From the NCBI GenBank assembly GCA_024641125.1, contig JAHEDQ010000016.1, positions 1 to 32,000 on the forward strand: DNA of 32,000 nt, given 5' to 3'. The first letter of the stretch is position 1. Each line of letters begins with the position of its first letter. The translations under genes were made by a program, and so were the position numbers. The notes beneath the pieces are model-generated. The model was not told the origin of the DNA and searched no databases. It saw only the letters and a program-made list of their open reading frames with translations. The DNA comes from Candidatus Competibacteraceae bacterium (GTDB lineage: Bacteria > Pseudomonadota > Gammaproteobacteria > Competibacterales > JAHEDQ01). This document shows, one piece after another, positions 25,451 to 27,223 of the stretch.

Positions 25451-27223
25451 TCAGTCGTGGGGCTCCCAGCCGAATTCCTCCACGGCTCGAAACAGGCCGT
25501 TGTCGGAAACAATGCCCTTGGGCGTACCGCGCCTGCCGGTCACCACGACACGCCGGATGTTGCGCTCCATCAGCAGATTGGCGATTTGACTCAGAGGGGT
25601 ATCGGTGTACACGGTGATCAACGGCCGGGTGGCAATCTCACTGACCTTAGTCATTGCCGGCGAGCGATTGGCGTTAATGATCTTCTTGACGATATCGCGC
25701 TGGGTCATGATGCCCCATTCGCCATCGGCGTTGGGTTCCACCAGCACCGAACTGATGCCCTGCTCGCGCATGATGTGCATGGCTGCATCGACCGTGTCCT
25801 CATCGCTGATGCGTCCCTTGAGCTGTGTCATGACACCGGCCGCGGTTGCGGGTTGACGACCGGAGTCCTTCATGGCTTCCACCGGGTTGGCGACACGCTC
25901 CGCCTCGAGTTCGGCCGCGGCCTTGGCCTGGGCCGCCCGACGCGCCTCTTCGACCCGGGCAAGATCCTCGGCACTGCCGCTGATTTTGGCGATCAGCGCG
26001 TCGGCGAATCCGGAAGTAGGGACAGCGGTGGCGCCGGCCATTTGCCGCGCAAAATCGTAGGTGACTGTTTTATCGGCGATTACCTGCGGAAACGCCGCGT
26101 TGATCAGGTCGGCCGCCTCTTTCCAGCCCATGTACTCGAGCATCATGACGCCGGACAGCAGCAGCGACGAGGGGTTTACCTTGTCCTGGTTGGCGTATTT
26201 CGGCGCGGTGCCATGGGTCGCCTCGAAAACCGCCACGTGATCAGCGATGTTGGCGCCCGGAGCGATGCCAACTCCGCCCACCTCTGCGGCTGCCGCATCG
26301 GAAAGATAATCGCCGTTGAGGTTCATCGTGGCCAGCACATCGAATTCGGCCGGACGAAGCTGCAAAAGCTGGAAAATAATGTCAGCAATTCGGTCCTTTA
26401 TCACCACCTTGCCGGCGGGCTGTTTGCCGCCGTAGATGTCGTACAGCTCTTCCTCGGTGATGGTTTGTTCCCCGAATTCCTCCTTGGCGAGTTCGTAGCC
26501 CCAGTTCCGGAACGCACCTTCGGTAAACTTCATGATATTGCCCTTGTGCACCAGGGTCACACTCGAGCGCCCGTTGTCGATGGCGTGCTGTATGGCCTTG
26601 CGCACCAGCCGTTTGGTGCCGAACTCCGAGATGGGCTTGATACCGAGTGCCGCGTCTTCGAAGAACTCGCAACCCATTTCATTGCGCAAAAAGGCGGCCA
26701 ACTTCTTATTTTCTGGACTTCCGCTCGCGTACTCAATACCGGAGTAGACGTCCTCGGTGTTCTCGCGGAAGATGATGACGTCCACGTCTTCCGGGCGCCG
26801 CATGGGCGAGGGCACGCCGGCGTAGTACCGCACCGGACGAACGCAAGCATACAGATCCAACTCCTGCCGCAAAGCCACGTTCAGGGATCGGAAACCACCA
26901 CCTACCGGCGTGGTCAACGGTCCTTTTATGGACACCACCAAATCCTGGCAGGCCTGCAGCGTCTCGGCCGGAAAGTAGTCGCCGTCGTAGACCGATGCCG
27001 CTTTTTCGCCCATGTACAACTCACACCAGTGAATCTTTTTCGACCCCCCGTAGGCTTTCTCCACCGCCGCGTTCCAAACCCGCAGCGATGCGCGGGTGAT
27101 GTCCGGCCCGATTCCGTCTCCTTCCACAAAGCCCACAATCGGATTGTCCGGCACGTGCAATTTGCCATCAACAACGGTGATCTTTTCCCCGCCAGCGGGA
27201 ATCTGGATATGTTGGTAGCCCAT
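25451..27223 (-). CDS. icd: NADP-isocitrate dehydrogenase (E. coli-type core, about residues 1-414) fused to a linker and a C-terminal CBS-domain pair (about residues 464-585)
   Basis: The ATG at 27223 is preceded by a perfect AGGAGG. The core carries [22 protein letters not shown] (Ser at index 113) and NLNGDYLSD. The C-terminal 175 aa form an Ala/Glu-rich linker plus two CBS repeats. The tracked 647-aa ORF adds a 57-aa Arg/Pro-rich extension that I reject. Confidence 0.9.

Follow-up and report, generated by a model that had tools for sequence, protein, structure and literature searches.

A C-terminal CBS pair on an NADP-isocitrate dehydrogenase of Competibacteraceae: a widespread fusion and a candidate for small-molecule control

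The DNA analyzed here is a 32-kb stretch from a Candidatus Competibacteraceae bacterium (the window), which carries a complete icd-CBS coding sequence on the minus strand (27223..25451). It consists of 590 codons and a TGA stop codon (25451-25453) in one frame, and its product matches Pfam Iso_dh and, twice, Pfam CBS. The longest frame (25451..27394, minus strand) would yield 647 residues when counted from its first ATG. The ATG at 27223, however, is preceded at a distance of 4 nt by a Shine-Dalgarno sequence AGGAGG (27228..27233, minus strand), as a direct reading of the sequence reveals, and the 590-aa ORF described in the initial annotation therefore stands. The segment 25451-25981 comprises exactly residues 415-590 and the stop codon, and no frame break was found at the junction between the isocitrate dehydrogenase (IDH) domain and the linker. 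A strong terminator had been proposed 3' of icd. Indeed, an intrinsic terminator (25377..25414, minus strand) starts 37 nt past the stop codon; the consensus scan placed at 25414..25387 a G+C-rich stem of 12 bp, 9 of them G-C, that is closed by a 4-nt loop and followed by a T-run, and RNA folding of the 3' region gave -42.9 kcal/mol (z = -4.3). A scan of the window against Rfam returned no match. Divergent from icd lies a sigma-54 two-component system, which motivated a search for a sigma-54 promoter upstream of icd. Matches occurred at chance level. The sole good one (27764-27778) lies on the opposite strand and faces the kinase gene, and a sigma-54 site for icd was rejected.

The N-terminal part (residues 1-414; 25982..27223, minus strand) is an NADP-isocitrate dehydrogenase domain of the type-I homodimeric class. 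It scores 651.9 bits against the NCBIfam model TIGR00183 (prok_nadp_idh, cut-off 567.3) over residues 3-414, which bears out the earlier assignment of a complete E. coli-type enzyme up to about residue 414. The icd-CBS protein also reaches 641.3 bits against NF005425 (cut-off 490), and Pfam Iso_dh (PF00180) spans residues 30-409 (E 1e-87). Sequence comparison with solved IDHs gave 574 bits for P. aeruginosa ICD (5m2e) and 537 bits for E. coli IDH (1ai2). Structural alignment with E. coli IDH structures gave 59-61% identity, and target-normalized Foldseek TM-scores against solved IDHs were 0.86-0.92. We take S113, N115, R119, R129, R153, Y160, K230, D307 and D311 of the E. coli enzyme to be the substrate, metal and catalytic residues, and K344, Y345, V351, Y391 and R395 to be the determinants of NADP specificity. 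The segments 108-120, CVRPVRY (127-133), 152-164, HKGNIMK (226-232) and 301-310 agree with 5m2e, 3dms and 1hqs. Aligned to the same structures, the NADP segments 336-351 and TYDFAR (388-393) retain Lys, Tyr, Val, Tyr and Arg. With catalytic and cofactor motifs intact, the domain is predicted to be a catalytically complete, NADP-specific IDH of the E. coli type. Segment 108-120 includes Ser113, which the initial annotation had correctly placed as the AceK target position. Since all such IDHs need this serine for catalysis, its presence is not diagnostic of AceK control.

The linker (residues 415-463; 25835..25981, minus strand) was characterized from AF2 helices, column conservation and comparison with locus L002, which carries the nearest match to the window protein. 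Its Ala/Glu/Arg-rich composition had been recognized before and is correct, but the region is not a mere low-complexity spacer, since it contains invariant residues and a predicted long helix. In the AF2 model, an alpha-helix of 28 residues (418-445) continues the last IDH helix (403-416) and is followed by a short helix (447-453), with pLDDT values of ~82-87. Column conservation, computed over 51 full-length fusions, revealed the linker motif E440-x2-R443-x3-P447-x2-A450-M451-x2-S454-G455-R456-x-P458. Here E440, R443, P447, A450, G455 and P458 are invariant or nearly so, as is the F-G-W of the C-terminal tail.

The linker is followed by CBS motif 1 (residues ~464-522; 25658..25834, minus strand), assigned from Pfam CBS, conservation and the beta-alpha-beta-beta-alpha elements of the AF2 model, and by CBS motif 2 (residues ~523-584; 25472..25657, minus strand), in which the best Pfam CBS stretch covers 527-582. 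The two stretches of PF00571 (63.8 bits, cut-off 24, E 1.9e-17) agree with the two repeats proposed earlier for residues ~464-585; a deviation in the second repeat had been overlooked. The ribose-phosphate-type motif of CBS1, W503-G-I-M-T-x-R-D510, is invariant in 51/51 fusions and reads G504-I-M-T-Q-R-D510 in the window. In CBS2 the window has G570-I-V-S-D-N-G576, whereas the family consensus is GIVSDTD with Asp at 576 (D in 32 fusions, G in 11, A in 7 and Q in 1). The ribose-binding Asp of CBS2 is thus not conserved; the canonical site of CBS1 is kept, that of CBS2 is degenerate in the window, and at most one canonical site appears to be obligatory. The pair R557-R558 in CBS2 is invariant, and T507, R509, D510, R557 and R558 together form a strictly invariant set of putative ligand-site residues. 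The tail (residues 585-590; 25454..25471, minus strand), defined by conservation over full-length fusions, begins with the invariant G585 and W586, which belong to a conserved V-E-E-F-G-W motif (581-586) that is also retained in stand-alone CBS homologues. Taken together, the invariant CBS1 motif, Arg pair, linker residues and FGW tail are as expected for a ligand site combined with a specific transmission element.

Residues 415-590 were modeled by AF2 with a pLDDT of 88.4 as a beta-alpha-beta-beta-alpha fold that occurs twice, and the full-length monomer reached a pTM of 0.77. Foldseek aligned the module with 5nmu, 2ef7, 2yzi, 1xkf and others at a probability of 1.00 (rmsd 1.8-3.3 A over 120-136 columns), and the full-length model retrieved plain IDHs only. 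According to the model, the CBS module is a canonical Bateman fold. Compared with L002, the linker differs at 10 nucleotides and at no amino acid. For the CBS part, omega was 0.04 against L002 and 0.12-0.27 against more distant relatives. These substitution patterns indicate strong purifying selection on both the linker and the CBS part.

The initial annotation had raised the question of how widespread the combination of Iso_dh and CBS is. The fusion proved to be widespread: it is present as one ORF (a single in-frame HSP) in 71/80 species-representative genome loci, and among proteins clustered at 90% identity it accounts for no fewer than 148 clusters. The frame is continuous across the junction in the window, as had been stated, and in 71 genome loci, and the fusion is not an assembly artefact. 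An exact look-up of the window protein returned no identical entry; its nearest match (P0192, from L002) is 98% identical and likewise a single ORF. Carriers are mostly Gammaproteobacteria, namely Competibacteraceae, Plasticicumulans, Ectothiorhodospiraceae and Nitrococcus, and include Ca. Competibacter denitrificans (WP_048672675.1) and Plasticicumulans acidivorans (WP_110018279.1). Public databases label the fusion "isocitrate dehydrogenase (NADP(+))" and nothing more. Some pipelines wrongly name stand-alone CBS proteins "isocitrate dehydrogenase", because of the IDH-CBS fusion. We found no account of the architecture in the literature and no IDH-CBS structure in the PDB. The earlier view of an uncharacterized architecture therefore holds in this respect, but the fusion is neither rare nor absent from databases. 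The gene is real, intact, widely conserved and, as far as literature and PDB show, uncharacterized. Two 173-aa versions (P0004 and P0015) first looked like split genes; gene fission was rejected for P0004, which begins at base 20 of its contig and hence is an edge-truncated fusion.

In a neighbor-joining tree calculated without support values, the fusion IDH domains form one clade, within which one nested subclade has no module. From its nested position we read this subclade as having lost the module, so that its members are natural delta-CBS forms. They share the synteny of the fusion genes and show no obvious compensation. A search for a fusion-specific signature on the IDH domain, made against the unfused subclade, returned one discriminating column (Y261 vs W). 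This column alone is uninformative and the idea of a fusion-specific docking surface was dropped; the near-absence of fusion-specific changes counts against a tightly co-evolved surface of this kind.

The initial annotation had also proposed to look for aceK. Using tblastn with two AceK proteins, we found none in the 32-kb window or in the ~1.1 Mb of sequence flanking 80 fusion-family loci. The gene does occur beside unfused sister icd genes: it lies directly downstream of icd in 3/7 contexts of the unfused subclade, compared to 0/71 fusion loci. The position of aceK next to module-less icd genes fits a module that acts at the same control point. Strict mutual exclusivity of CBS module and AceK was rejected, since locus L133, detected in an AceK-seeded metagenome scan, carries aceK together with an unfused icd and, ~100 nt downstream of this icd and in the same orientation, a stand-alone CBS pair from the subfamily seen in the fusion. 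The module is therefore not simply a substitute for AceK. In Kouleothrix-type Chloroflexi, a CBS gene of this subfamily is a convergent neighbor of icd, and the link between the subfamily and icd thus exists in three independent genomic forms: fused, stand-alone downstream, and as convergent neighbor. Elsewhere, members of the subfamily occur stand-alone, as triple tandem or fused to ribulose-phosphate 3-epimerase. The single fusion clade with its nested loss, aceK beside unfused genes and the non-strict exclusivity are new here. A conserved operon was considered as a clue to function and rejected, because the neighbors are lineage-specific and none is universal. Synteny of icd, lutABC, ppsR, mdh and acs is confined to Competibacteraceae relatives; elsewhere, ppc lies immediately downstream in 19/67 loci, and a thiolase gene is the neighbor in 12/64.

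With AceK-regulated E. coli Icd, icd-CBS has in common the catalytic family, Ser113, the NADP determinants and the metabolic control point. In contrast, it adds a 176-residue C-terminal stalk and Bateman module that is absent from the solved or described IDHs we found, and the control proposed for it would be non-covalent and allosteric rather than by phosphorylation. A metabolic enzyme covalently joined to one CBS pair is also found in IMPDH, CBS-pyrophosphatase and cystathionine beta-synthase. In these families, the ligand of the pair is an adenine or guanine nucleotide or SAM, and the pair alters activity or oligomerization. Residues 471-580 of icd-CBS weakly match the IMPDH Bateman region, and the TIGR01302 match (26.4 bits, cut-off 481.5) is confined to it. 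While the IMPDH pair is inserted in a catalytic TIM-barrel, that of icd-CBS is C-terminal on a long helix and the catalytic folds are unrelated. By its sequence icd-CBS is not a member of the IMPDH family, but by analogy may work like one. Adenylate control of the IDH step itself is known from the mitochondrial NAD-IDH (IDH3; yeast Idh1/Idh2), which has ADP or AMP and citrate as allosteric activators and follows the same logic as proposed for icd-CBS. Human IDH3 chains have a homologous fold (TM-score ~0.86 to the icd-CBS model). However, IDH3 is NAD-dependent and hetero-oligomeric and is regulated via paralogous subunits of the same fold, not by CBS domains. An extra C-terminal domain on an IDH has a precedent in Thermus thermophilus TT0538 (2d1c, a 495-aa chain) and the ~480-aa proteins of NF006673/TIGR02924. 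That domain is not a CBS pair, and icd-CBS scores far below the cut-offs of these models (272.6 vs 509 and 221 vs 561).

The closest solved relative of the module is cyanobacterial CBS-CP12 (5nmu, 5nvd, 5npl), with a Foldseek E of 3e-12 at ~29% identity (rmsd 1.8-2.8 A) and a phmmer E of 3.8e-10. Motif positions are shared (GIVTETD, IRR and GIISVSD in CBS-CP12). CBS-CP12 is specific for AMP, with a Kd of 0.41 uM, and its regulation of phosphoribulokinase depends on AMP; it is hexameric, and AMP leaves its oligomeric state unchanged (PMC6142219). Unlike icd-CBS, it is fused to CP12, acts in trans and has no link to IDH.

Because of the motif conservation and this AMP-specific relative, we propose that the module exerts direct small-molecule control, probably by an adenine nucleotide, over the IDH to which it is joined; we put the probability of this reading at roughly one half. 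The last IDH helix would extend into a helical stalk of ~28 residues that bears the Bateman module. An adenine nucleotide (AMP, ADP or ATP) would bind around GIMTxRD of CBS1 and Arg557-Arg558, and ligand-dependent movement or dimerization of the module could pass through the stalk to the large domain of the IDH. In TYDFAR, the predicted NADP 2'-phosphate-binding residues, Tyr389 and Arg393, precede the stalk by just ~20 residues. As a result, IDH activity and flux through the isocitrate node would be tuned to the energy state of the cell. In this proposal the ligand, the direction of regulation (activation or inhibition) and the transmission route are inferred. The ligand is not readable from sequence, and the closest solved relative shares only ~29% identity. 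Other known ligands of CBS pairs are SAM, NAD(H), c-di-AMP, Ap4A and Mg-ATP, and ionic strength may be sensed instead. The variable Asp of CBS2, the near-absence of fusion-specific changes on the IDH domain and the existence of delta-CBS forms in the same synteny also weigh against the proposal.

The strongest competing explanation, which we nevertheless consider unlikely, is that the regulatory module senses a signal other than adenylate energy charge, such as redox state or NAD(P)H, SAM, c-di-AMP or (p)ppGpp, Mg2+ or Mg-ATP, or ionic strength. Foldseek returned similar scores for 3kpb (SAM/MTA), for OpuCA (5ks7, c-di-AMP) and for MgtE and CorC (Mg2+/ATP). Halophiles and haloalkaliphiles are numerous among the carriers (Ectothiorhodospiraceae, Alkalilimnicola, Arhodomonas, Nitrococcus, Methylonatrum), and the acidic tail EEFGWEPHD may recall the sensing of ionic strength by OpuA, a known sensor of this parameter. 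Non-halophilic wastewater organisms such as Competibacter and Plasticicumulans carry the fusion as well, however, and the top match in both sequence and structure is the AMP-specific CBS-CP12. Moreover, adenosine-ribose-phosphate sites are classically marked by a G-h-h-T-x-x-D motif together with an Arg pair, and in the fusions this signature is invariant.

Somewhat less probable still is a mainly structural role, in which the module drives or stabilizes an oligomer (for example a dimer of dimers via CBS-CBS pairing) or the enzyme, without ligand-responsive control. Bateman modules typically self-associate, and the hexamer of CBS-CP12, unaltered by AMP, would fit such a function, as would an IDH domain almost without fusion-specific changes and the clean loss of the module in one lineage. 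Yet the strict invariance of T507, R509, D510, R557 and R558 exceeds purely structural need, and a covalent stabilizer does not explain stand-alone homologues beside unfused icd genes. We also regard as improbable a module that works in trans on a different partner, possibly AceK, PEP carboxylase or malate dehydrogenase, with the fusion to IDH serving merely to co-localize or co-express it. Plant CBSX proteins act on thioredoxin, and CBS-CP12 also works in trans. The varied contexts of the subfamily, ppc downstream in 19/67 loci, mdh nearby in Competibacteraceae and the gene cluster in L133 are consistent with this idea. These neighbors are lineage-specific, however, and the conserved helical linker running on from the IDH C-terminal helix suggests mechanical coupling in cis. 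Finally, an artefactual joining of icd to a CBS gene behind it, through a sequencing frameshift or an assembly error, is effectively refuted by the uninterrupted ORF in independent genomes from many projects, the conserved linker and a dN/dS far below 1. In favor of an artefact, separate icd and CBS genes do exist in L133, and in A. ehrlichii AK92 (L056, a cultured-strain assembly) two frameshifts interrupt the gene, the junction being the site of one.

How IDH is controlled at the isocitrate branch point is textbook material, and with AceK in E. coli it supplied the earliest case of regulatory phosphorylation in a prokaryote. To our knowledge, most bacteria lack AceK and their isocitrate partitioning is poorly understood. 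Returning to direct control by the fused module, a more far-reaching and tentative picture, which we consider less likely than not, is that an energy-charge-sensing Bateman module on a stalk makes up a phosphorylation-independent IDH switch at the TCA/glyoxylate/anaplerotic branch point. This switch, so far unrecognized, might go back to the ancestor of a large clade of gammaproteobacterial IDHs and might functionally replace AceK or complement it; where the module was lost, aceK might have been recruited directly downstream of icd, and some lineages might run the CBS sensor in trans, as a separate gene beside icd. The hypothesis is open to direct testing: the proteins are soluble products of single genes, and both the naturally occurring delta-CBS forms and the stand-alone homologues of the module can serve for comparison. 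The carriers are of environmental and industrial importance and include the glycogen- and PHA-accumulating wastewater bacteria Competibacter and Plasticicumulans, soda-lake and marine Ectothiorhodospiraceae, and Nitrococcus. In these organisms, TCA/glyoxylate flux under feast-famine or energy limitation is a central question. If true, a ligand sensor covalently attached to IDH would add a third mode of regulation to AceK and the adenylate-regulated, hetero-oligomeric NAD-IDH of mitochondria.

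The icd-CBS gene lies on the minus strand, where the ORF listing gives a frame of 647 aa from the first ATG (25451..27394). Reading of the sequence revealed a product of 590 aa from an ATG at 27223, preceded by the Shine-Dalgarno motif AGGAGG (27233-27228) with a spacer of 4 nt, as the initial annotation had proposed; its coordinates 25451-25981 correspond to the 3' end of this minus-strand ORF. The strong terminator described behind the gene was likewise found, on the same strand at 25414..25387 (12-bp stem with 9 G-C pairs, 4-nt loop and T-run), in a region with an RNA folding z of -4.3. 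Pfam assigns residues 30-409 to Iso_dh (E 1e-87), and TIGR00183, the NCBIfam equivalog for prokaryotic NADP-IDH, matches residues 3-414 with 651.9 bits (cut-off 567.3), in line with a complete E. coli-type NADP-IDH. Ser113 is present within segment 108-120. Substrate, metal and NADP-specificity segments, including TYDFAR, agree with those of solved IDHs in the alignment (5m2e, 3dms, 1hqs), and hence the fusion has kept its catalytic and NADP-specificity motifs intact. The two proposed CBS repeats were recovered by Pfam as two stretches (E 1.9e-17, 63.8 bits, gathering score 24). Since ORF, domain, residue and terminator evidence agree, the initial annotation is confirmed in each factual element.

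In an AlphaFold2 model of the full-length protein (67-sequence alignment, mean pLDDT 81.9, pTM 0.77) the last IDH helix (403-416) passes almost unbroken into a 28-residue helix (418-445), followed by a short helix (447-453) and two beta-alpha-beta-beta-alpha CBS motifs. Modelled alone, the module reaches a pLDDT of 88.4. Across 51 full-length fusions the linker residues R428, R429, E440, R443, P447, A450, M451, S454, G455, R456 and P458 are invariant or near-invariant, while W503-G-I-M-T-x-R-D510 in CBS1, R557-R558 in CBS2 and the C-terminal V-E-E-F-G-W are invariant. Position 576 in CBS2, the equivalent of the CBS1 Asp, is not fixed (D 32, G 11, A 7, Q 1), and the window protein has Gly there. 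The family therefore seems to keep one canonical site of the ribose-phosphate type, a motif defined as in established CBS-domain knowledge, and to tolerate loss of the second, so that one invariant, putative adenosine-type site is retained.

The add-on (residues 415-590) is translated and constrained, as judged from synonymous and non-synonymous changes. Compared with L002, the closest relative, the linker differs at 10 nucleotides and 0 amino acids. In the CBS part, 28 nucleotide changes go with 4 amino-acid changes (omega 0.04). For relatives at 74-80% protein identity, omega is 0.12-0.27 in the add-on and 0.06-0.09 in the IDH domain. Both the stalk and the Bateman module thus are conserved and under selection. 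Between window 25451-27223 and L002:8759-10528 (98% identical) synonymous divergence is about twofold higher in the IDH part (dS 0.64) than in linker and CBS part (0.32-0.33), which could reflect within-gene recombination or differing codon constraints.

The closest solved Bateman modules were those of CBS-CP12 (5nmu, 5nvd; Foldseek E about 3e-12, 29-30% identity), a cyanobacterial AMP-specific CBS-pair protein acting on phosphoribulokinase (PMC6142219), and stand-alone archaeal/bacterial CBS pairs (ST2348, PH0107, Rv2626c) were also among them. Because of the motif and this AMP-specific nearest structure, the module would bind an adenine nucleotide, most likely AMP, ADP or ATP. The signal may pass via the stalk helix, which starts about 20 residues past the NADP 2'-phosphate-binding Tyr389 and Arg393, and/or be carried by CBS-CBS association between subunits, with modulation of IDH activity as the outcome. 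We give this reading a probability of roughly one half. The same motif and nearest structure point away from a non-adenylate ligand, which we consider unlikely. Somewhat less probable again is a structural or oligomerisation role of the module, next to which stands the invariant putative site in CBS1.

Comparison of fused and unfused columns showed that fusion-specific changes in the IDH domain are near absent. Residue 261 (window about 26441-26443) is the sole column separating fused from unfused clade members: 99% of 219 fusions have Tyr and 19/19 unfused proteins have Trp. The position could either make a contact or just mark the lineage. That only Y261 versus W distinguishes the IDH domains argues against tight cis coupling, as does the existence of viable lineages with a delta-CBS (unfused) icd. 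A ranking on the IDH domain, with the add-on left out, mixes fused proteins (587-590 aa) with unfused ones (414-417 aa) at 80-85% identity. Neighbour joining of 244 IDH domains, with few outgroups and without support values, placed all fusions within one clade that excludes the P. aeruginosa ICD, the L027 second IDH and the Chloroflexi IDH; 19 of 20 unfused proteins group together in a single subclade within it. This is most simply explained by a single origin of the fusion and one secondary loss. Three of seven unfused contexts keep the window synteny icd, lutA, lutB, lutC, ppsR, mdh, with lutA 2-15 nt past the icd stop, and are clean natural delta-CBS forms. Three others have different surroundings, with aceK (AceK_regulatory and AceK_kinase) 9, 9 and 226 nt downstream of icd, and one shows neither arrangement. 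One fusion-carrying genome encodes a second, unfused IDH (L027:18991-20319, minus strand; 55% identical). It lies some 8.5 kb from the fusion on the downstream side, and a ppsR homologue separates the two; therefore some carriers, at least, have two type-I IDHs.

The initial annotation had also suggested a check for aceK. Using tblastn with two AceKs from unfused neighbours (45% identical mutually), no aceK was detected in the window or in about 1.1 Mb flanking fusion loci, a result that covers the window and these flanks. In the reverse test, an AceK-seeded scan of metagenome contigs, a complete icd was adjacent in 4 of 80 loci. At locus L133, aceK (5962-7755, plus) is divergent from a classical unfused icd of 415 aa (4412-5659, minus), and a stand-alone CBS pair of 144 aa (3877-4311, minus) lies about 100 nt downstream on the icd strand. 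This pair is a member of the fusion's subfamily and shares 54% identity with the window module (GIMTKRD, IRRIVV, GIVTEAD, VEQSGWG), and L133 would represent an in-trans version of the fusion co-existing with AceK. Strict alternation was consequently rejected: module and AceK are not strictly alternative.

Kouleothrix-type Chloroflexi encode a CBS protein of 216-217 aa convergent with an unfused 450-aa icd across a gap of about 70-100 nt (L081: 9773-10426, plus, and 10495-11847, minus; L085-L088: 5001-5651, plus, and 5755-7107, minus). This protein occurs in 109 listed blocks of the collection and combines a short N-terminal domain, for which Pfam gives no match, with a CBS pair of the fusion's subfamily behind it. 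The subfamily is therefore tied to icd as fusion, same-strand neighbour and convergent neighbour, three independent configurations that provide Rosetta-stone-type evidence for IDH as its target. Action of the module in trans on another partner is improbable in our estimate. The representative library also contains the subfamily fused to ribulose-phosphate 3-epimerase (P0058, 376 aa; PF00834 and CBS x2) and in three tandem Bateman modules with 6 CBS motifs (P0043, 489 aa; P0044, 419 aa). From these forms it looks like a mobile sensor cassette on more than one central-carbon enzyme.

A genome scan (one genome per GTDB species) revealed 150 stretches with a module relative, the best 80 of which were kept. 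In 71 of these best 80 of 150 loci, tblastn with the 590-aa query gave one in-frame HSP over about residues 1-588 (65-98% identity); the remaining loci run into contig ends, carry frameshifts (L056) or have a stand-alone module (L081). L002 (98%), a Microflora Danica MAG labelled uncultured Gammaproteobacteria, is the closest of the 80, and Competibacteraceae MAGs come next. Further carriers are Ectothiorhodospiraceae, Alkalilimnicola, Arhodomonas, Nitrococcus, Methylonatrum, Acidiferrobacterales, Arenicellales and Beggiatoa, plus a few bins labelled Nitrospira, Phycisphaerales and Burkholderiales. Two protein searches found at least 148 clusters at 90% identity (570-590 aa, both domains), including Ca. 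Competibacter denitrificans Run_A_D11 (WP_048672675.1) and Plasticicumulans acidivorans (WP_110018279.1, UniRef100_A0A317MWW8), and a query limited to the C-terminal 176 residues returned many N-terminally truncated metagenomic fragments with PF00180 and PF00571. The fusion is real, correctly described and commoner than initially implied, and an artefact is extremely improbable. All fusion clusters are named only "isocitrate dehydrogenase (NADP(+))"; the fusion is catalogued yet functionally unremarked. JGI labels CBS-only proteins of 104-173 aa (P0004, P0015, P0017, P0022-P0025, P0034) 'isocitrate dehydrogenase', and at least P0004 is an edge-truncated fusion; evidently, the CBS part spreads a wrong functional label. 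In the assembly of the cultured strain Alkalilimnicola ehrlichii AK92 (L056:8752-10510) two frameshifts, one near residue 145 and the other precisely at the IDH/linker junction, disrupt the gene and leave a separate 138-aa CBS ORF at 10094-10510; this is either a pseudogene/split gene or an assembly error. The fusion-clade protein P0321 (491 aa, 245-kb contig) stops inside CBS1 (...VNVAMHTMIEKASTR) and appears to be a natural truncated variant that keeps the stalk without a complete Bateman module.

The fusion gene lies amid central-carbon genes in a lineage-specific manner (window:18091-25229, minus strand; L034, L039, L053 and others). In Competibacteraceae relatives it has as neighbours lutABC, ppsR, mdh and a gene for a 629-aa acyl/acetyl-CoA synthetase; the next gene downstream encodes PEP carboxylase in 19 of 67 loci, and a thiolase gene lies upstream in 12 of 64. 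Divergent from icd, the window encodes a HAMP/HisKA sensor kinase (28014-29558, plus), a 196-aa ORF without Pfam family (29555-30145, plus) and a sigma-54-dependent response regulator (30160-31518, plus). The 196-aa ORF keeps its position in L002-L004 (40-77% identity) and adds an uncharacterised third component to the two-component operon. The 790-bp icd-kinase intergenic region (27224-28013) has no Rfam match. Its icd strand carries a terminator-like hairpin (27529..27508), and a sigma-54-like site, TGGCAC-N5-TTGA (27764-27778, plus), faces the kinase gene.

When the full model was compared with solved structures, no solved IDH aligned past about 425 columns, and no PDB sequence joins IDH and CBS domains. 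Full-text literature, with subscription journals mostly outside coverage and hence as absence of evidence, held no description of an IDH-CBS fusion. The protein thus combines a known enzyme and a known regulatory module in an arrangement covered by no structure or paper found. Mitochondrial NAD-IDH is activated by adenylates and IMPDH is controlled by nucleotides; the proposed control of the fusion would follow a parallel logic with a different build. A CBS pair on a metabolic enzyme is unlikely to astonish a specialist. Control of isocitrate partitioning in bacteria without AceK is a long-standing question, and the position at an AceK-controlled branch point, together with natural loss variants and the aceK and stand-alone CBS contexts, makes it directly testable.
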